A DNA stretch of 64,000 nt from a phage, in the sequence record PZ347661.1; one strand, written 5' to 3'. The translations under genes and the position numbers were made by a program. This document shows, one piece after another, positions 19,957 through 33,866 of this stretch. Position 1 is the first letter of the stretch. The number at the start of each line of letters is the position of its first letter. The notes beneath the pieces were generated by a model. The model was not told the DNA's origin, did no database searches, and saw only the letters and a list, made by a program, of their open reading frames with translations.

Positions 19957-21993
19957 ATGAAAATCGAACTGATTTCTATCATCGCACTGGCAGTTGACAG
20001 TCGTAACCTTACACTGTGGAAGCCCGATGGCTCCACGCTTATATATCCTCAGAGCGATCCACGGGTTGCTCGTATTGTATCTGAAGCACAAACCAAAGGT
20101 CTGGGAACTACCAAAGACCAAATAGAAGTGAATATTGCACCAGAAGTAAACCTGCGTACTGAATATCTGGAAGCAGAGAAGAACACTAATGGATTCGTCC
20201 GTTTCTTCAAGGTAGCTAAAGCTAAACTTATGGAGTTCTTTCAGGATGGTACAGGTGTTCCTCCTGCACGTATCGTCTCAGATATTAAGCTGGGTAACCC
20301 TACTAAGACGTTGGTATCTAAAGCCATGGATACCTTCCTGGCTGTACAAGCTAATGAACCAGAAGTAACTGTAACAGATGGTTTCTACGACAGACGAGAC
20401 AACCTGATGTGGGTTACTGGCTGGGATAAGGACCATAACCATCCTGCACTGGTTCGTTTTATCAATGACGTACTGCGTTGTGGTTATGACCATACCAACC
20501 GTACTCTTGCACAGGAATGGCCTATTGCAATTCGTGCAGTATCCGATGATGAAATGGGTGAGTTTGCTAAACAAGCTCAGCACATCAAAGGAGTACACAT
20601 TGTATTTACCAGTCGTGATGTAACGCCATTTCCTTACGTAGAAGTAGTTAAAACTACGAACCAGGATAAGCTGGCTGCCGCTTCTGAGAAGCTGGCTGCA
20701 TTGGGGGCTATTAGTACTGATGATGCTAACTTCCACACTGATGTGAAGGAAGATGAAGTGGTTGTTGCTGTTACCAACAATGGGGTTATCCCTGGAGTTG
20801 AGAACCTGCATCGTCACTTGCGTCAATCTGCTCAGCTGAAAGACTACAAGGGCTTTACTAAGTTCCTTGAGCGTCTGGCTCCGGTTATTAAAGACCGTCT
20901 GCACTCAGTAGAAGACCTGATGAAGTTCATGGAGACTGCTGAACTGCCTATTGCCGATGATGGTTCAATCCTGTTCCTCAAACGCCTTAAGTCTAGTGGT
21001 ATAGAAAACGGTAAACGTGTATTCGTTGACTGTCACTCAGGTAACATTCGTCAATGGGTAGGCTGTAAAGTGCAGGTACGTGAAGACCTGGTAGACCCTG
21101 ACCGTCGTCAGGATTGTTCTAACGGTCTGCACGTAGCATCCATGAGCTATCTACGTGGCTTCGGTGGTAACGTAACTATCCTTGGTAAAGTAGCACCGGA
21201 AGATGTATTTGCTGTTCCTGAGTACAGCACTAATAAGATGCGTGTATCTGCATATCATATTATTGCTGAGCTACCCGAAGAGGAACGTAATAACGTTAAC
21301 AACGGTATCTATCTTTCTAAAACTGAAGTAGGTAAAAAGCTACTTAATGATGCCATCGTTGGGAACCATAGTTCACCTACCACACTTATTATGGTTGGTG
21401 GTCATTATGGTACTAACCTCAAATACACCAATCTATCTTCTGGTTCCGTAGAACAATTCCGTACAGTTGCTAGTAAAGAAGCACTGAATATGGAAGAGTC
21501 ACTGAATGAAGCTGTAGCTGCTGAACCAGTGAAAGCTACTGACCTTAAACCTATTAGTAAGAAGGCTCCTACTGTGAAAGAACAAATCCAGGAACTGGTT
21601 AAAGAGTTCCTTAATGCAACAACCCCTGAAGATAAGTTAGCTGCTGCTGACCTTCTGGTAGAACTGCGTGGTAAAGCTCGTAAGCCCTGGGGTGCATTCG
21701 ACGTAGGTAGTGATGTAGTAGACGCTATTGCTACTATCCGTAGTACTCGCATTCCTGCACCAAAAGCTAAACCGGTGAAGGTAAGCAAACCTATTAAAAC
21801 TGCCCCTAAACCAATTAATGGAACACACGCTGATAATCTGCGTAGCATCCTGAACGATACGACGTACTCCGACTATCAGAAAGGCCATGCTCTGCAAGAC
21901 TATAAGCGTCATGCTAAGAAGTCATTCACTGCAATGGGTTTGACTGAAGAAGAAGCTAAATTAGCTACCAAACTGGTCAAAGCTGTTAAGTAA
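19957..21993 (+). CDS. rIIB: rIIB-like protein (678 aa)
   Basis: Position directly after the rIIA-like gene and size; no specific motif. Confidence 0.5.
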   Translation: MKIELISIIALAVDSRNLTLWKPDGSTLIYPQSDPRVARIVSEAQTKGLGTTKDQIEVNIAPEVNLRTEYLEAEKNTNGFVRFFKVAKAKLMEFFQDGTGVPPARIVSDIKLGNPTKTLVSKAMDTFLAVQANEPEVTVTDGFYDRRDNLMWVTGWDKDHNHPALVRFINDVLRCGYDHTNRTLAQEWPIAIRAVSDDEMGEFAKQAQHIKGVHIVFTSRDVTPFPYVEVVKTTNQDKLAAASEKLAALGAISTDDANFHTDVKEDEVVVAVTNNGVIPGVENLHRHLRQSAQLKDYKGFTKFLERLAPVIKDRLHSVEDLMKFMETAELPIADDGSILFLKRLKSSGIENGKRVFVDCHSGNIRQWVGCKVQVREDLVDPDRRQDCSNGLHVASMSYLRGFGGNVTILGKVAPEDVFAVPEYSTNKMRVSAYHIIAELPEEERNNVNNGIYLSKTEVGKKLLNDAIVGNHSSPTTLIMVGGHYGTNLKYTNLSSGSVEQFRTVASKEALNMEESLNEAVAAEPVKATDLKPISKKAPTVKEQIQELVKEFLNATTPEDKLAAADLLVELRGKARKPWGAFDVGSDVVDAIATIRSTRIPAPKAKPVKVSKPIKTAPKPINGTHADNLRSILNDTTYSDYQKGHALQDYKRHAKKSFTAMGLTEEEAKLATKLVKAVK

Positions 21994-24874: not shown

Positions 24875-27454
24875 ATGCGTTACATCACCTCTCAAGATAC
24901 GGGTAAGTATCCCATTGCTATCCTCGGTCATCAAATCCGAAGGGAGGAGATGATTAAAACCTACCTGCTGCCTAATGACTTAAGCATGGAAGATTTCATC
25001 TTCATTGAGCTTCATTCTGCCCCAGGCAAGAAGAAGACTCCTGCAAGGGAAATTAAAGAGTTCATACAGCAGGAACTTCAACAAGTACTGGATGATGCAG
25101 AAACTCAATACATAATCTGTACCGATTCTGATTACTTCAAAATACTGACTAAAGAAGCTAAAGCAGAGGCTAACCTCGGCTATGTTTGTGACTCAATATG
25201 GGGTAAGCAGAAGGTTATCTATGCACCTAGCTACAGGCAGGTCTTTTATGATCCTCCTGTAGTGAAATCCAAGATTGCTCAGGGTATGGATGCATTACTT
25301 AACCACATCCGTGGGCAGTATGCCGAACCAGGTCAGGGAATCATTGAGTTTGAAGCCTATCCAGATACACCAGAGAAGATTAAAGCCTGGTTAGACCAGT
25401 TGCTTGAGATGAATAAGCCACTGGCTATAGACATTGAAACATTCGGTTTAAAGCACTATAACGCCGAGGTAGGAACAATTACATTCTGTTGGAGTAAGAC
25501 ACAAGGCATAGCCTTTAATGTGGACTACGAGCCGATTCCTGGGGCTACTGAAGCACCTTACGGGCGTATCAACAGAAATGATATTGTTCGAAATCTTCTC
25601 CGTGAGTTCTTCATTAAGTACACCCAACGGCAGATGTATCACAACATTAGCTATGACGTGTATGTGCTTATCTATCAGTTATTCATGGATAACCTGATTG
25701 ATACAGAAGGCTTACTACATGGCATGGAAATCATGCTACGTAACTGGGATTGCACTAAGTTAATTACCTACCTGGCTACTAACAGTTGTGCCGGTAATCA
25801 CCTTAGTCTGAAAGATCAGGCTCAGGAGTATGCTGGTAACTATGCTCAGGATGATATTAAAGACATCTGTCTTATTCCTAATGAGCAGCTGTTACGCTAC
25901 AACCTCATTGACGGTTTGTGTACGTGGTACACCTATGAGAAGCACTGGGATACTCTCATTGCTGATAACCAATTGGATGTTTACAACAACATCTTTAAGC
26001 CAGCTTGTGAAGATATTATCCAGATGCAGTTAACCGGTATGCCCATGAATATGGATACCGTTAACCAAGTAGCTAAGGAGATGGAAACTGACAGGAACCA
26101 GGCTCTGAAAACTATTCGTGAGTCTAAGCTCATGAAGAACTTCACACTGATGCTTCGTCAGGAATGGGTAGACGATAAGAATGCTAAGCTGAAGAAGAAG
26201 CAAGTAACACTTGCTGACTGTGACATCGAGTTTAATCCAAACTCCGGTCCACAGCTACAGAAGCTGTTATTTGACTATATTGGCTTACCGGTTCTTGGTC
26301 TTACTAAGAGCAAGCAACCTGCTACTGATGGTGACACTATTAAAGCACTGCGTACCCATACGCAGAGTGAAGATGTTAAGGAACTGCTCAATGCACTTAT
26401 CGACTATAAGCTCGTGGATAAGATTATCACTAGCTTTATACCAGCTTTCAGGAATGCCCAACCGGGACCGGATGGCTGGCACTACCTATTCGGTAACCTC
26501 AATCTGGGAGGCACAGTCTCCGGTAGGCTATCGGCTTCAGAGCCAAATCTACAAACAATTCCATCCGGCTCTAAATATGCCAAGAAGATTAAGAAATGCT
26601 TCGAAGCTCCTCCAGGCTGGATATTTTGCGGCTTGGATTTCGCCTCGCTGGAAGACAGAATCTCTGCACTGACTACTAAAGACCCACAAAAGCTCAAGGT
26701 ATATACCGACGGCTATGATGGTCACAGTCTACGTGCATATGCTTACTTCGGCGAGCAGATGCCAGACATAGAAGACACAGTAGAATCCATTAACTCCATT
26801 CAGCATAAGTACAAATCATTACGTAGTGATTCGAAGGCTCCAACCTTCCTGCTTACCTATGGTGGTACTTATATGGGCTTAATGAAAAACTGTGGCTTCT
26901 CTGAAGAGAAGGCTAAAACTACAGAGAAACGTTATCACGATCTCTATGTAGTTAGTGACAGGTGGGTTCAGGCTAAGCTGGACGAAGCTGCCAAAACTGG
27001 CTATGTTACTGCCGCATTCGGTTTGAGAGTGCGTACTCCTTTACTGGCTCAGGTTTTACGTGGGACATGTAAGACTCCGTATGAAGCAGAAGCAGAAGGC
27101 AGAACTGCTGGTAATGCTTTAGGGCAAAGCTGGTGTCTACTGAATAACCGTGCTGGTTCAGAATTTATGCGTAAAGTCAGAGCCAGTGAGTTCAGATTAG
27201 ATATTCGTCCTAGTATTCATATTCATGATGCTCAGTACTTCATGATTCGTGACAACATGGATACCTTGCAGTTTACGAACAAGCACTTGGTTGAAGCTGT
27301 TAACTGGCAAGACCATCCTGATATTGCTCATCCAGAAGTTGGCTTGGGTGGGGAACTATCCTTGTTTTACCCAACGTGGGCTAACGAGATTGAAATTCCA
27401 AATCACGCTACCCCAGAAGAAGTTCATCAAATAATTCAAAAGGCATTCGCATGA
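24875..27454 (+). CDS. family A DNA polymerase with 3-prime-5-prime exonuclease domain (859 aa)
   Basis: Exo I LAIDIETFG; Pol A motif A LDFASLEDRI, motif B RSDSKAPTFLLTYGG, motif C HIHDAQYF. Confidence 0.85.
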   Translation: MRYITSQDTGKYPIAILGHQIRREEMIKTYLLPNDLSMEDFIFIELHSAPGKKKTPAREIKEFIQQELQQVLDDAETQYIICTDSDYFKILTKEAKAEANLGYVCDSIWGKQKVIYAPSYRQVFYDPPVVKSKIAQGMDALLNHIRGQYAEPGQGIIEFEAYPDTPEKIKAWLDQLLEMNKPLAIDIETFGLKHYNAEVGTITFCWSKTQGIAFNVDYEPIPGATEAPYGRINRNDIVRNLLREFFIKYTQRQMYHNISYDVYVLIYQLFMDNLIDTEGLLHGMEIMLRNWDCTKLITYLATNSCAGNHLSLKDQAQEYAGNYAQDDIKDICLIPNEQLLRYNLIDGLCTWYTYEKHWDTLIADNQLDVYNNIFKPACEDIIQMQLTGMPMNMDTVNQVAKEMETDRNQALKTIRESKLMKNFTLMLRQEWVDDKNAKLKKKQVTLADCDIEFNPNSGPQLQKLLFDYIGLPVLGLTKSKQPATDGDTIKALRTHTQSEDVKELLNALIDYKLVDKIITSFIPAFRNAQPGPDGWHYLFGNLNLGGTVSGRLSASEPNLQTIPSGSKYAKKIKKCFEAPPGWIFCGLDFASLEDRISALTTKDPQKLKVYTDGYDGHSLRAYAYFGEQMPDIEDTVESINSIQHKYKSLRSDSKAPTFLLTYGGTYMGLMKNCGFSEEKAKTTEKRYHDLYVVSDRWVQAKLDEAAKTGYVTAAFGLRVRTPLLAQVLRGTCKTPYEAEAEGRTAGNALGQSWCLLNNRAGSEFMRKVRASEFRLDIRPSIHIHDAQYFMIRDNMDTLQFTNKHLVEAVNWQDHPDIAHPEVGLGGELSLFYPTWANEIEIPNHATPEEVHQIIQKAFA

Positions 27455-27756: not shown

Positions 27757-28040
27757 TGACTAAGCTCTCCGGTGGATTGAATAACTGGTATGTAGTACCA
27801 GTTAAGCACCCTCAACGGAAAGAGCAAGAGCCATACCAAGCAGAGTGTGAGGATATTATCCAAGCACTGGGCATGACCTTCGATGAAGGTTGTGCCTTTA
27901 AAGCTCTGTGGCGAAATGCTGCTGCCCGTATGGGTAATGGTAAACCTGGAAACTCTTCAGTGTACGACTCAGAGAAGATTGTGCACTATGCCAACCGTAT
28001 ATTAAAAAAGGCTTACAATGAAGATAACCAACAATCATGA
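27756..28040 (+). CDS. hypothetical protein (94 aa)
   Basis: ORF, overlap coupling. Confidence 0.5.
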   Translation: MTKLSGGLNNWYVVPVKHPQRKEQEPYQAECEDIIQALGMTFDEGCAFKALWRNAAARMGNGKPGNSSVYDSEKIVHYANRILKKAYNEDNQQS

Positions 28041-28998
28041 TGTCTCACTGGCTCTGGCTGTATGGCTACTACATGATGAGTATGATTACGTAGACAATCC
28101 TAAGTATCTGTCTGTTACTACATTGCTTAAGCCTATTAAGCAAATCGTCATGAAACATCGTGTAGATCTCAGTGACCAGTCAATTGATGTTATGGATTTT
28201 GTCTCCACATCAATGGGTACTGGCTTACATGACTCTATCGAGAAAGCCTGGAAGCTGGGTCATAAGACTGCATTGAAGAAGCTAGGTTATCCTCAGCGCG
28301 TAATTGATGCAGTAGTCATTAATCCAACCGAAGCAGACTTTGATGCTAACCCTGACCTTATCCCAATCTACATTGAACAACGTGGAACCAGGGTAGTTAA
28401 GGGTTGGACTATCGGTGGTAAGTTCGACATCGTAACAGAAGGTCTGTTGCAGGACTTTAAGTCCACTTCAACCTATTCCTGGGTTGCTGGTTCCCGTGAT
28501 GATGAACACAAGATGCAAGGTAGCTTATATCGTTGGATTCACAACGACATCATTACCGAGGATGTAATCCGTATTAACTACATCTTCACTGACTTCATGA
28601 AGCATATGGCCAATAGCAATCCGAACTATCCTGCTAATCGTATTATGCACAAGGATATTCCGTTGCTATCTGTCGATAAGACTGAACGTTGGGTAGAAGA
28701 GAAGATTCACCTCATTGAGAAGTACTGGAATGCACCTGAAGAGGAAATTCCTGAATGTACTGACGAGGAGTTGTGGCGAACAGAGCCACAGTTCAAATAC
28801 TTCTCTGATGCTTCTAAGGTAGATGTACCTGGAGCCAGAAGTACCAAAAACTTTGACGATATGGCATCTGCTCGTATCTTCATGGCTGAAAAAGGTGGCA
28901 AGGGTGCTATCAAGGTCGTGGAGGGGCAGGTTAAGCGTTGTCTATACTGCCCTGTCGCGTCCATTTGCAAACAAAGAGAGAGATATTTTCCATCATGA
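28018..28998 (+). CDS. putative PD-(D/E)XK-type exonuclease with C-terminal CxxCx5C motif (326 aa)
   Basis: GKFDIV ... LQDFKST nuclease-like motifs and C-terminal CLYCPVASIC cysteine cluster; N4 encodes a 5-prime-3-prime exonuclease in this region; inference. Confidence 0.5.
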   Translation: MKITNNHDVSLALAVWLLHDEYDYVDNPKYLSVTTLLKPIKQIVMKHRVDLSDQSIDVMDFVSTSMGTGLHDSIEKAWKLGHKTALKKLGYPQRVIDAVVINPTEADFDANPDLIPIYIEQRGTRVVKGWTIGGKFDIVTEGLLQDFKSTSTYSWVAGSRDDEHKMQGSLYRWIHNDIITEDVIRINYIFTDFMKHMANSNPNYPANRIMHKDIPLLSVDKTERWVEEKIHLIEKYWNAPEEEIPECTDEELWRTEPQFKYFSDASKVDVPGARSTKNFDDMASARIFMAEKGGKGAIKVVEGQVKRCLYCPVASICKQRERYFPS

Positions 28999-29510
28999 GT
29001 AAGCTGACCCAGCAACGTCTGAAAGAATTACTGCATTATGATGCTCAAACTGGCATCTTCACTCGTCGTATATCTCTCAGTAATCGCACACCAGTAGGTA
29101 GCATTGCTGGGTCAGTTAACAAGAGTGACGGCTATATCTATATAACTGTTGATGCCAAACGGGAAGCTGCTCACAGATTAGCTTGGTTCTATGTATATGG
29201 GGTATGGCCAGAAGGTCTTTTAGACCATAAGGACACTATTAAAACCCATAACTGGATAGACAATCTGAGAGAAGCCGATAAAAGTACTAACGGAGCTAAC
29301 CGTGGACTGAATAAAAACAACACTACAGGTTTTATGGGTGTTACAAAATTCAGGAGTGGATACCGAGCAGCAATTAAGGTAAACCACAAATCACATTTTC
29401 TAGGTGTATTCCCAGATGTAGTAGAGGCAGCTAAGGTATACGACAAAGCTGCATTAGAACATTTTGGGGAATTTGCCGTTACTAACATGAGCTTAGGATT
29501 ATTTAAATGA
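28995..29510 (+). CDS. HNH homing endonuclease with AP2 DNA-binding domain (171 aa)
   Basis: HNH motif LDHKDTIKTHNWIDNLREA...N and AP2 motif GYRAAIKVNHKSHFLGVF...EAAKVYDKAALEHFGEFA. Confidence 0.8.
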   Translation: MSKLTQQRLKELLHYDAQTGIFTRRISLSNRTPVGSIAGSVNKSDGYIYITVDAKREAAHRLAWFYVYGVWPEGLLDHKDTIKTHNWIDNLREADKSTNGANRGLNKNNTTGFMGVTKFRSGYRAAIKVNHKSHFLGVFPDVVEAAKVYDKAALEHFGEFAVTNMSLGLFK

Positions 29511-31660
29511 GTATTGACCTTACTGGCATAAGTCACCACCCTGCAATTGAAGAAATTGTAGACGTGCTGTGTAACAAGACACAAAACAACGACAGAGGAT
29601 TCTTCCGTGTCGAAGTAGCCTACTTCCTGGCTAAAATGGCATCCTGTATGGGTGCAACCATTGTCACTAAAGACCGTGGTGACTTACCAGTCAACATTTA
29701 CGCTATGGCATTAGCAACGTCTGGCTTCGGTAAAGGTCACTCGGTAAATATTATTGAAGACGGATTTATGACTGGCTTCCGTAAACGCTTTATGGAAGAC
29801 ACCATGCCCGTCATTGCAAATGACCGTTTATGGAAGATTGCTAACGAACGTGCTGCTCGTCAGGGTACAGACCAGAATGATGAGTTTGATAAAGTTGAGG
29901 CAGAGTATAAGCGTGCTGGAGCATATCCGTTTACGTTTGACTCAGGTACTCCACCAGCAGTTAAACAATTACGTCACAAGCTGTTAATGGCTGGGTGTGG
30001 TTCAATCAACCTTCAGATTGATGAGATTGGTTCAAACCTGTTAGCTAACACAGATGTATTAACCCTGTTCCTGGAGCTATATGACCAGGGTAAGGTTAAG
30101 CAGAAGCTAACCAAAAACACTGCTGAAAGTGTTCGTGGAGAAGAACTGGATGGTAAGACTCCAGCTAACCTGTTGTTGTTTGGTACACCAAGTAAGCTAC
30201 TGGATGGTGGTCAGACCGAAGATCAGTTCTATGACTTCCTCGATACAGGGTATGCACGTCGCTGTCTGTTTGCCATTGGGCATTTAGACAAACGAGCACA
30301 TGCAACAATGTCTCCGGAAGAAATCTACCGTAACCTGATTAAACAGGATAACGTGCAGTCTCTTGGCAAGTGGGCTAATCATTTCCATAGTCTGGCTGAC
30401 CCAAACCTGTTTGGTTTTAAAATGGTTGTGGAAGATGCTGTGGGGATTGCTCTGATTACTTACAAGATTGATTGTGAGAAACAGGCAGAGGCTATGGCTG
30501 ACCACGAAGAGATTCGTAAGGCTGAAATTTCACACCGTTACTTCAAAGCTCTTAAGCTGGCAGGAGCACTGGCATTTGTTGACCAGAGTTCATTCATTGA
30601 GATGTCCCATCTTAAACAAGCAATCCTGCTTGTAGAGGAATCTGGAGCAGCATTCCAGGGTATTCTCAATCGTGAGAAAGCCTATGTGAAGCTGGCTAAG
30701 TACATTGCCTCTGTAGGTAAAGAAGTAACTCATGCTGACTTGCTGGAGTCATTGCCTTTCTATAAGAGCGGTAATGCAGCTCGTAATGAGATGATGACTC
30801 TTGCTACAGCATGGGGTTACAAACAGCACATCATCATTAAGAAAACCTTCAATGAAGGTATTGAGTTCTTCCGTGGTGAGACTCTGAAAGAAACTGACAT
30901 CAATGAGATGATAGTGGCATATAGTGATAGCTTTGCTTATGACTACATTGGTGAACGTGTACCGTTCGACCAGTTGCATGTATTAACCCAAGCTCCCGGT
31001 ATGCACTGGGTAAACCATCATATGAAGAATGGGCATCGTTCTGAAGAGAACGTTATTCCAGGATTTAACATGATTGTTATTGACTGTGATGGTGGAGTAC
31101 CACTGCATATGTGCCATGAACTGATGAAGGAATATAAGTTCATGACCTATACCACTAAACGTCATTCTGATGAAGAGAACCGATTCCGACTGATTATTCC
31201 AATGAACTATGAGTTACACCTCGACACTGAGGAATACAAAGAGTTCATGAATAACGTTATGTCTTGGCTACCGTTCGAAACGGATGAGTCTGCTAATCAG
31301 CGAGCCAAGAAGTGGATGTCCTGCGAGATTGGTTCCTATCATTACAATCTTGAAGCAAATCTGTTGGATGTGCGTGACTTTATTCCTCGTACTAGTAAGA
31401 ACGAGCAGTTCCGGAACCAGATGAAGGAAGTACAGTCGTTGGATAATCTGGAGCGTTGGTTCGCTAGTCGTATTGCTACCGGTAATCGTAATAATCAAAT
31501 GATTAAGTACGCACTGGCATTGGTTGACAGTGGTTGGGATTTTGCCCAAGTACAGCAAGCCGTCCACTCATTCAATAAGAAACTGGTTAATCCATTGCCA
31601 GATGATGAATTGAATGCAACCGTAATGGTCACCGTGGCTAAACGCTTCGCTGGCAAGTAA
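29507..31660 (+). CDS. primase-like replication protein (N4 gp43-like, 717 aa)
   Basis: Large replication-module protein with P-loop-like SGFGKGHS; primase role inferred from synteny, not from a clear motif. Confidence 0.5.
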   Translation: MSIDLTGISHHPAIEEIVDVLCNKTQNNDRGFFRVEVAYFLAKMASCMGATIVTKDRGDLPVNIYAMALATSGFGKGHSVNIIEDGFMTGFRKRFMEDTMPVIANDRLWKIANERAARQGTDQNDEFDKVEAEYKRAGAYPFTFDSGTPPAVKQLRHKLLMAGCGSINLQIDEIGSNLLANTDVLTLFLELYDQGKVKQKLTKNTAESVRGEELDGKTPANLLLFGTPSKLLDGGQTEDQFYDFLDTGYARRCLFAIGHLDKRAHATMSPEEIYRNLIKQDNVQSLGKWANHFHSLADPNLFGFKMVVEDAVGIALITYKIDCEKQAEAMADHEEIRKAEISHRYFKALKLAGALAFVDQSSFIEMSHLKQAILLVEESGAAFQGILNREKAYVKLAKYIASVGKEVTHADLLESLPFYKSGNAARNEMMTLATAWGYKQHIIIKKTFNEGIEFFRGETLKETDINEMIVAYSDSFAYDYIGERVPFDQLHVLTQAPGMHWVNHHMKNGHRSEENVIPGFNMIVIDCDGGVPLHMCHELMKEYKFMTYTTKRHSDEENRFRLIIPMNYELHLDTEEYKEFMNNVMSWLPFETDESANQRAKKWMSCEIGSYHYNLEANLLDVRDFIPRTSKNEQFRNQMKEVQSLDNLERWFASRIATGNRNNQMIKYALALVDSGWDFAQVQQAVHSFNKKLVNPLPDDELNATVMVTVAKRFAGK

Positions 31661-31716: not shown

Positions 31717-32469
31717 ATGTCCGAAGTAATTCCCAATGATATGAACACTCAGCTAATCCTGATTGCAGGATTCTCAGCGAGCGGTAAATCAGCATCACTG
31801 CGTAACATCCGGAACCAGGAACGCTGGCTCTATCTGAACACTGAAGCAGGTAAACGTCTGCCTTTCCGTAACAAATTCAATACCTACAACATCGAAGACC
31901 CATATCAGATTTGGGAAGCATTTGATGTTGCATCTCCTGGTGGAGAAATGGCAGATGATGTTGATGGTATCATCATTGACTCAGCAACCTTTATGATGGA
32001 TATGCTGGAATCCCAGTATGTATTGCCCTCTGCAAACACACAAAAGGCATGGGGTGATTTTGCACAGTTCTTTAAGATACTGCTGCAACAGAAAGTTGTT
32101 AAGTTTGGTAAGCCAGTAATCATTACTGCTCATGCTAAAGACGAACTGGATGAAGCTGCTGGTGTGATGAAAACATTCATCCCAGTGAAAGGTTCTCTTA
32201 AGAATAACGGGCTTGAAGCCTACTTCTCTACAGTGGTTTACGCAGAACGTGTAGACATTAAAGAACTGGAGAAGTATGGGAACAAGATGCTTGAAATTAC
32301 GGAAGAAGAACGTGACTTAGGGTATAAGCACGTATTCCAGACCCGTCCAACCAAGAAGTCAGTAGGTAAACGACTTCGTTCCCCAATGGGTATGTTTGAT
32401 AAGTCCGAGACTTATATCGACAATGATGCCCAGAAACTCTTAGACCACCTGGCTGAATACTACGCTTAA
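31717..32469 (+). CDS. P-loop ATPase (250 aa)
   Basis: Walker A GFSASGKSAS and Walker B-like IIIDSAT. Confidence 0.55.
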   Translation: MSEVIPNDMNTQLILIAGFSASGKSASLRNIRNQERWLYLNTEAGKRLPFRNKFNTYNIEDPYQIWEAFDVASPGGEMADDVDGIIIDSATFMMDMLESQYVLPSANTQKAWGDFAQFFKILLQQKVVKFGKPVIITAHAKDELDEAAGVMKTFIPVKGSLKNNGLEAYFSTVVYAERVDIKELEKYGNKMLEITEEERDLGYKHVFQTRPTKKSVGKRLRSPMGMFDKSETYIDNDAQKLLDHLAEYYA

Positions 32470-32508: not shown

Positions 32509-33312
32509 ATGTCATTGTTCAGTAATCTGAAAGAAAAAACCAAAAACGTTGAAGCTGCTAAAGACTCCCTGGGTGGGGGTGGCTTCGGTGCAAAAGAAAC
32601 CGATATCTACACCGGTACTGTAAAAGTAGCTTACGTAGGCAAAGCTGACTCTGGTGCAGACTGGATGCAGTTAATCATTGAAGACCTGAAGAACTCTGAT
32701 GGCGTACCTGCTGGTGAGTTCCGTGCTCAGGTGTACTTCACTTCTGGTAATGCTAAAGGTAACAAGCCAACTTACGAGAAGAATGGCAAAGAATACTTCT
32801 TGCCTGGCTACACTGTCATTAACGACATGATGCTGATGGCTACCGGTACTGAACTGCCTGAAGCAGACTTCGAAGAGAAGATTGTTAAGGTCTATGACTT
32901 CGATGCTAAAGCAGAGGTTAATAAATCCGTCATGGTTCCAGTTGACCTGGTTGGTCAGACTGTTACCTTCGCTCTGGAAAAAGTTCTGGAATCTAAGCAG
33001 GTTAAAGGTGACAACGGCTACGTTGACTCCGGTGAAACTCGTGAAGTAAACGAGATCCAGAAAGTGTTTCATCCGGAACTGCTGGTCACAGTCGTCGAGG
33101 CTCAGGAAGCAGAGAAGGCTGAGAAAGAACTGACCCCAGAACTGGCTGTATTCTATGCAGCATGGCTGGAAAAGAACAAAGGCAAGACTCGTGATAAGAC
33201 CAAGGGTTCTGCTGGTGGTAATGGTAAAGGTGGCTTGCCTCCTAAACCAGGTGCAGGTGCTGGCACGGGTACTACTCCTGCTGGTGGTAAATCACTGTTC
33301 GGTAAACGTTAA
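32509..33312 (+). CDS. single-stranded DNA-binding protein candidate (N4 gp45-like, 267 aa)
   Basis: Size and position match the N4 SSB (recalled as ~265 aa); Gly/Pro-rich flexible C-terminal tail; inference. Confidence 0.5.
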   Translation: MSLFSNLKEKTKNVEAAKDSLGGGGFGAKETDIYTGTVKVAYVGKADSGADWMQLIIEDLKNSDGVPAGEFRAQVYFTSGNAKGNKPTYEKNGKEYFLPGYTVINDMMLMATGTELPEADFEEKIVKVYDFDAKAEVNKSVMVPVDLVGQTVTFALEKVLESKQVKGDNGYVDSGETREVNEIQKVFHPELLVTVVEAQEAEKAEKELTPELAVFYAAWLEKNKGKTRDKTKGSAGGNGKGGLPPKPGAGAGTGTTPAGGKSLFGKR

Positions 33313-33866
33313 TGAAAATCCCAATTGTTGGTGCAGACATTAGTCTCCGCAATTGGGGTTTAGCTCGTGGGATGCTGGACATTGAGTCCGGCGTCTTCGA
33401 GCAGGTCGAACTTAAACTGGTTCAAACTGAAGTTGACCACAACAAACAAGTTCGAACCAACTCCAAAGATATACAAGCCGCTCACGATTTGTTTCTTGGT
33501 TGTGAGGAATGGTTACGGTCTGCTAAAGCAGTATTCGTAGAAGTACCAGTAGGCTCTCAGTCTGCTAACGGTATGAAATCCTATGGAGTATGCGTAGGAT
33601 TAATCGGTGCATTTCGTGCATTGGGTTGTCCAATCTTTGAAGTATCCCCAATTGAAAACAAACTTGCACTGGTCGGTGATAAAACTGCATCTAAGGACAC
33701 GATGATTCGTGCTGCTCATGCCATTTATCCTGAAGCCAACTGGCTCACAGATAAGAAGGGCAAACTTCTGAATAAGAATGAGCACTTAGCAGATGCAATC
33801 GGTGCAATCCATGCTGGTGTAAATCTCCCAGCTTTCCAGAACCTCATTAAGTTATTAAAGGCGTAA
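33312..33866 (+). CDS. RuvC-like Holliday junction resolvase (184 aa)
   Basis: N-terminal VGADISL (catalytic Asp), FVEVP (Glu), C-terminal HLADAIGAIHAG resembling the RuvC HxxDAxxxA motif. Confidence 0.55.
   Translation: MKIPIVGADISLRNWGLARGMLDIESGVFEQVELKLVQTEVDHNKQVRTNSKDIQAAHDLFLGCEEWLRSAKAVFVEVPVGSQSANGMKSYGVCVGLIGAFRALGCPIFEVSPIENKLALVGDKTASKDTMIRAAHAIYPEANWLTDKKGKLLNKNEHLADAIGAIHAGVNLPAFQNLIKLLKA

Follow-up and report, generated by a model that had tools for sequence, protein, structure and literature searches.

The gene at 28018..28998 (+ strand) of the window, a 64,000-nucleotide stretch of phage DNA (record PZ347661.1) whose source is a Gamaleyavirus (N4-like, Schitoviridae), encodes a stand-alone N4 gp42-type exonuclease. 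It is a RecB/Cas4-like PD-(D/E)XK nuclease, and its four invariant cysteines probably hold an iron-sulfur (Fe-S) cluster. This is not an enzyme of a new kind, as its fold, chemistry, and probable role are all familiar; we regard it as a known kind of nuclease, modestly varied by the unusual placement of one cluster ligand. To the model as a whole, in which a gp42-type nuclease with a four-cysteine cluster and a moved ligand would carry out 5′-3′ resection in recombination-dependent replication, we assign a probability of roughly 65%.

The coding sequence begins with ATG, specifies 326 aa, and is present as the earlier note described, including the C-terminal CxxCx5C (C308, C311, and C317, at nt 28939-28968). 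That note's label of putative exonuclease was borne out by a full-length profile match (residues 1-325) to PHROG 2139, “exonuclease,” at E 9e-152 and by 71% identity to N4 gp42 over 325 residues. We found the gp42-type gene in 473 phage records, essentially all of which were 70-79 kb N4-like genomes. The gp42-type exonuclease is not an unknown but a core gene of N4-like phages whose label already stands in RefSeq, and the window protein is a member of this Schitoviridae family (PHROG 2139) with no essential difference from it. In the literature that we searched, the family was described only as “exonuclease,” as “N4 gp42-like,” or as having an unknown function. An N4 exonuclease characterized by biochemistry and a link between Schitoviridae exonucleases and Fe-S were both sought in the literature, with no usable result, and PMC3424549 contained no discussion of the cysteines.

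The location in a replication module, also pointed out previously, is evident from the surrounding genes. Upstream lies a family A DNA polymerase gene, N4 gp39-like (24875..27454, +), recognized as an ORF and from how the syntenic records of ZQ2 and N4 are annotated. Downstream, the exonuclease reading frame shares an ATGA stop-start overlap with the adjoining gene, an HNH homing endonuclease located between the exonuclease and primase genes (28995..29510, +; PHROG 99, E 9e-64; Pfam HNH_3). This gene is an insertion and not part of the nuclease: N4 has no equivalent, with gp42 adjoining gp43 there, and several close relatives match only ~77% of the 2.2-kb query. The window shares the polymerase- and primase-flanked position of N4 gp42-like exonucleases but differs in having the homing-endonuclease gene directly after the nuclease. 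Further along are the N4 gp43-like DNA primase, called “DNS protein” in some records (29507..31660, +; PHROG 2135, PriCT_1), two context ORFs at 31717..32469 (+; PHROG 124, E 1e-49; Pfam AAA_24; N4 RefSeq annotation) and 32509..33312 (+; PHROG 743, E 2e-89), and a RuvC-like Holliday-junction resolvase (33312..33866, +; PHROG 159, E 2e-42). Altogether, the neighbours of the exonuclease gene comprise polymerase, HNH endonuclease, primase, Sak4-like annealase, single-strand binding protein (SSB), and RuvC-like resolvase. N4 and ZQ2 show the same synteny around the gene, following an N4-type module of polymerase, gp42, primase, gp44, and SSB, and the position of the gp42-type gene is also conserved in roseophage gene tables (PMC2784036, PMC11934525). 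Sak4 genes are known in N4-like phages (PMC5928155). The homologue in Leptospira phage LE4 follows a RecT-like annealase gene, with a single short ORF between the two.

A confident AF2 model (pLDDT 89.6) displayed a RecB-like α/β nuclease fold, with Cas4 SSO0001 as the top PDB match by Foldseek (E 3e-7). The hallmarks of RecB-family nucleases, a motif II Asp, a motif III (D/E)xK, and QhxxY, were all found and in that order, and the PD-(D/E)XK-like motifs noticed earlier are real. The motif I region, G67...H71-DSI-E75 (28228..28242, +), aligns with the GxxxH...E of Cas4-like proteins, H71 being invariant and E75 nearly so. An acidic residue on the strand before motif II, E120 (28375..28377, +), occurs in 151/151 and 119/121 sequences and is matched as well in the alignment to phage Cas4-type exonucleases. 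D137 (GGKFD; 28426..28428, +), the RecB motif II residue and a predicted metal ligand, is invariant in all homologue sets and lines up with the motif II Asp of both the MadKillah “Cas4 exonuclease” and the Cas4-like protein of Campylobacter phage CP8. Equally invariant across sets are D146-F-K148 (LLQDFKST; 28453..28461, +), which forms the (D/E)xK of motif III, and Q167 of the QhxxY motif Q167-GSL-Y171 (28516..28530, +), in which Y171 is replaced only in 3/120 LE4-clade sequences, by Leu. Taken together, H71/E75, E120, D137, D146-x-K148, and Q167-x3-Y171 are kept in ~390 homologues, down to 24% identity.

Profile and sequence searches recovered this relationship to varying degrees. Pfam PDDEXK_1 (PF12705) scored the window protein at 17.9 bits, below the gathering score of 22; 53/144 family members matched the model at E<0.01 (best 3.7e-7), and a precomputed PF12705 match exists for many of the LE4-clade members. 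PDB sequence searches returned nothing relevant with the protein alone, a 33-sequence profile, or a 144-sequence profile, and the relation to PDB entries was recovered through fold comparison only. Two canonical phage Cas4-type proteins submitted as PDB queries recovered no Cas4 sequence. When the family profile was compared with single sequences, hhalign yielded short local matches only, and its global mode was meaningless. The register of the catalytic motifs was borne out by profile alignment to phage Cas4-type exonucleases. A shifted core register, which placed FTD192xxK195 on motif III in full-length or wide-core hhalign against a canonical Cas4-like profile (probability 15-66%), was rejected because it would leave the motif II column with no acidic residue, because D192 varies while D137, D146, and K148 are invariant, and because it is at odds with the profile alignments to phage Cas4-type exonucleases.

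The whole protein contains exactly four cysteines (C247, C308, C311, and C317), and residues 1-246 have none. Three fall in the last 20 residues, RCLYCPVASICKQRERYFPS, as C308-L-Y310-C311-PVASI-C317 (C-x2-C-x5-C; 28939..28968, +), and are conserved wherever the position is present. C247 (IPECTDEELW; 28756..28758, +), the proposed fourth metal-cluster ligand, lies downstream of the nuclease core and is conserved in homologues. By itself, the C-x2-C-x5-C motif is weak evidence. It arose in 40/200,000 shuffles of the window protein (2e-4) and occurs in one other of the 101 stop-to-stop ORFs in the window, at 20281-20904, an antisense frame that looks non-coding. For the 28018..28998 ORF, however, chance origin is excluded by conservation. 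All four cysteines were invariant among 33 close homologues, and among 150 representatives at 32-52% identity they were missing only at alignment gaps (one sequence for C247 and four for the C-terminal three). Even the distant Leptospira-phage-LE4-like clade retained all four in 120/120 sequences, with a C-terminal spacing of C-x3/4-C-x5-C. Across ~390 homologues, the four cysteines never varied where the position was present. The earlier note had named a missing nuclease fold and unconserved cysteines as grounds against its reading; we found the RecB-like fold described above together with cysteines that do not vary.

The spacing was likened in that note to the Fe-S nucleases of the Cas4 type, and this comparison held for the C-terminal cysteines. 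With hhalign, C308/C311/C317 aligned to CP8 C223/C226/C232, with an aromatic residue in common at C-x-[YW]-C, and by this alignment they look homologous to the three ligands that Cas4/AddB/Dna2/Exo5 provide to the cluster from the C-terminal side. The arrangement as a whole, by contrast, is non-canonical. In the canonical iron-staple, the first cluster cysteine is N-terminal to the nuclease core, and the cluster joins the N- and C-terminal segments (PMC4176176), giving one cysteine before the core and three after it. Here, all four come after, and C247, unmentioned previously, is the one out of place. The N-terminal helix S32-x-T34-x-L36...P39...Q42-I43 (28111..28161, +), where canonical Cas4-type proteins have their first cluster cysteine, has no cysteine in the window protein. 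The canonical cysteine column (CP8 C16; 36/36 in the Cas4-like set) falls on I43 (hhalign, E 2e-4, probability 46%), so that the Cas4-like first-cysteine position corresponds to Q42/I43. This N-terminal cysteine is absent from both gp42-type clades, N4-like and LE4-like.

Between C247 and C308, the protein contains a ~60-residue β-β-α-β insert (28759..28938, +), with secondary structure in the AF2 model assigned as E258-262, E277-279, H282-291, and E297-301. When a 243-aa canonical Cas4-like protein was aligned with hhalign, nothing in it corresponded to this insert. For the relation among the four cysteines, we used coevolution in place of Sγ distances. By DCA, the E246-R322 pair ranked 9-18 of 51,360, and its charges were exchanged (E/R to R/E) in 14 sequences; K41-K318 and Q42-R307 ranked 10-36 of 51,360, and R254-V305 and E242-K318 were also within the top ~36 pairs. 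Together, these couplings put three segments in contact: the helix at the N terminus, the loop around C247, and the loop of C-terminal cysteines. A broader and more tentative proposal, toward which we lean somewhat negatively, is that the gp42-type exonucleases (N4-like plus LE4-like) form a distinct Fe-S nuclease lineage, in which a ligand moved from the N-terminal helix to a post-core position and a self-contained C-terminal Fe-S module clamps the new ~60-residue insert.

Transferring an Fe-S cluster from Cas4/AddB to this protein is less safe than it looks, because the cysteine topology is not an experimentally validated one, and the four cysteines could equally hold Zn2+, with which four-cysteine sites are generically compatible. 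The fold and nuclease would then be the same, and the cysteines would instead form a structural zinc site pinning the C-terminal insert, in keeping with the lost canonical ligand layout (no cysteine N-terminal to the core) and with the drift of the LE4-like clade to C-x3/4-C-x5-C. Still, we consider a zinc site unlikely, given that C-x-[YW]-C-x5-C aligns with the Fe-S-binding motif of every characterized relative (PMC4176176, PMC3466216). Cas4 proteins with the same cysteine signature bind [4Fe-4S] or [2Fe-2S] and are 5′-3′ exonucleases (PMC3466216, PMC4176176), and the cluster is dispensable for catalysis in some of them (PMC4176176).

That the gp42-type protein acts as a CRISPR-associated Cas4 is very improbable, and we rejected Cas4 proper. 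PF01930 (Cas_Cas4) matched neither the window protein nor any of 144 relatives, NCBIfam models, those for Cas4 among them, did not match the window protein, and the neighbours are replication and recombination genes rather than cas1/cas2 or a CRISPR array. Moreover, across N4-like phages infecting many hosts, the gene keeps a fixed place in a polymerase-primase-annealase-SSB-resolvase module, a single short ORF separates the distant homologue from a RecT-like annealase, and the family is ~100 residues longer than Cas4 with a different cysteine topology. These observations outweigh the points in its favor, namely that the closest solved structure is a Cas4, that a second, weaker match was to a PHROG annotated “CRISPR/Cas system associated” (E 2.5e-10), and that there is precedent in Campylobacter phages (PMC4283603). 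Compared with Cas4 (DUF83; SSO0001 / PDB 4ic1; Pcal_0546 / 4r5q), the window protein has the C-terminal C-x2-C-x5-C in common but is ~120 residues longer, with a cluster cysteine at 247 after the core instead of on the N-terminal helix. The CP8 Cas4-like protein and related “RecB family exonucleases” (PF01930 + PF12705) are likewise phage-encoded and share the catalytic motifs and C-x-[YW]-C-x5-C, but they keep the canonical N-terminal cysteine (36/36) and lack the ~60-residue C-terminal insert. With the iron-staple domains of AddB, Dna2, Exo5, and AdnB, the window protein shares four conserved cysteines, including C-x2-C-x5-C, and an expected 5′-3′ polarity. In those domains, however, the cluster staples an N-terminal helix to a C-terminal loop across the core, whereas all four ligands here lie in the last 80 residues of a stand-alone protein without a helicase domain.

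In our preferred model of an Fe-S nuclease with a moved ligand, D137, D146, and K148, aided by H71/E75/E120 and Q167..Y171, would bind Mg2+/Mn2+ and cut DNA, as the motifs and fold suggest. The four cysteines would together ligate a single cluster, with [4Fe-4S] or [2Fe-2S] the most likely types. The ancestral ligand site on the N-terminal helix would have become Q42/I43, with C247, which comes after the last helix of the nuclease core, taking over. Because this replacement ligand sits after the core, the cluster would hold the C-terminal insert of ~60 residues clamped to the core; the N-terminal helix would still pack against the cluster. Gene context and the polarity of all close structural relatives suggest that the enzyme would resect DNA ends 5′-3′ to leave 3′ single-stranded tails. 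These could then be used by SSB and the Sak4-like annealase, and the RuvC-like resolvase could resolve the products, as the linear phage genome undergoes recombination-dependent replication and forms concatemers.

The neighbouring genes likewise suggest a resection nuclease for recombination-dependent replication, and we infer both the 5′-3′ polarity and the recombination role from analogy and synteny. A probable role as the resection partner of a single-strand annealing protein likens the window protein to Lambda Exo / RecE / YqaJ-type exonucleases. Those exonucleases have no cysteine cluster, and they pair with Rad52-like or RecT annealases, whereas the gp42-type partner would be Sak4-like (RecT-like in the LE4 clade). 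The enzyme might instead serve as a Dna2/Exo5-like 5′-flap or primer-removal nuclease for lagging-strand maturation, offsetting a polymerase without 5′-3′ exonuclease and performing no end resection, but we think this quite improbable. N4 replication reportedly requires the host Pol I 5′-3′ exonuclease, a surprising need if gp42 performed the same function. The conserved linkage with a Sak4-like annealase, SSB, and RuvC, and the RecT linkage in LE4, also fit the exonuclease-annealase pairing of recombination modules. What speaks for flap or primer removal is the placement of the gene between the polymerase and primase genes and the absence of a 5′-3′ exonuclease domain from N4-type polymerases (PMC2784036).

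A 5′-3′ exonuclease activity encoded by N4 was reported in the 1980s (Guinta et al. 1986; Rist et al. 1986). If the gp42-type protein is an Fe-S nuclease, this long-reported activity would gain a molecular identity and a cofactor. The protein would also represent a natural case of ligand relocation in the “iron-staple” architecture, which, if true, would help explain the cluster's job in Cas4, AddB, Dna2, and Exo5. The N4-like phages, which find wide use in phage therapy, make up a large family whose core replication-module genes include gp42. An Fe-S nuclease at this position would tie N4-like replication to the iron supply of the host and to its iron-sulfur biogenesis. Should the more tentative proposal of a distinct lineage be true, Schitoviridae replication and recombination would depend on the host Fe-S assembly machinery, and phage DNA replication could be subject to an iron or redox checkpoint formed by the cluster.

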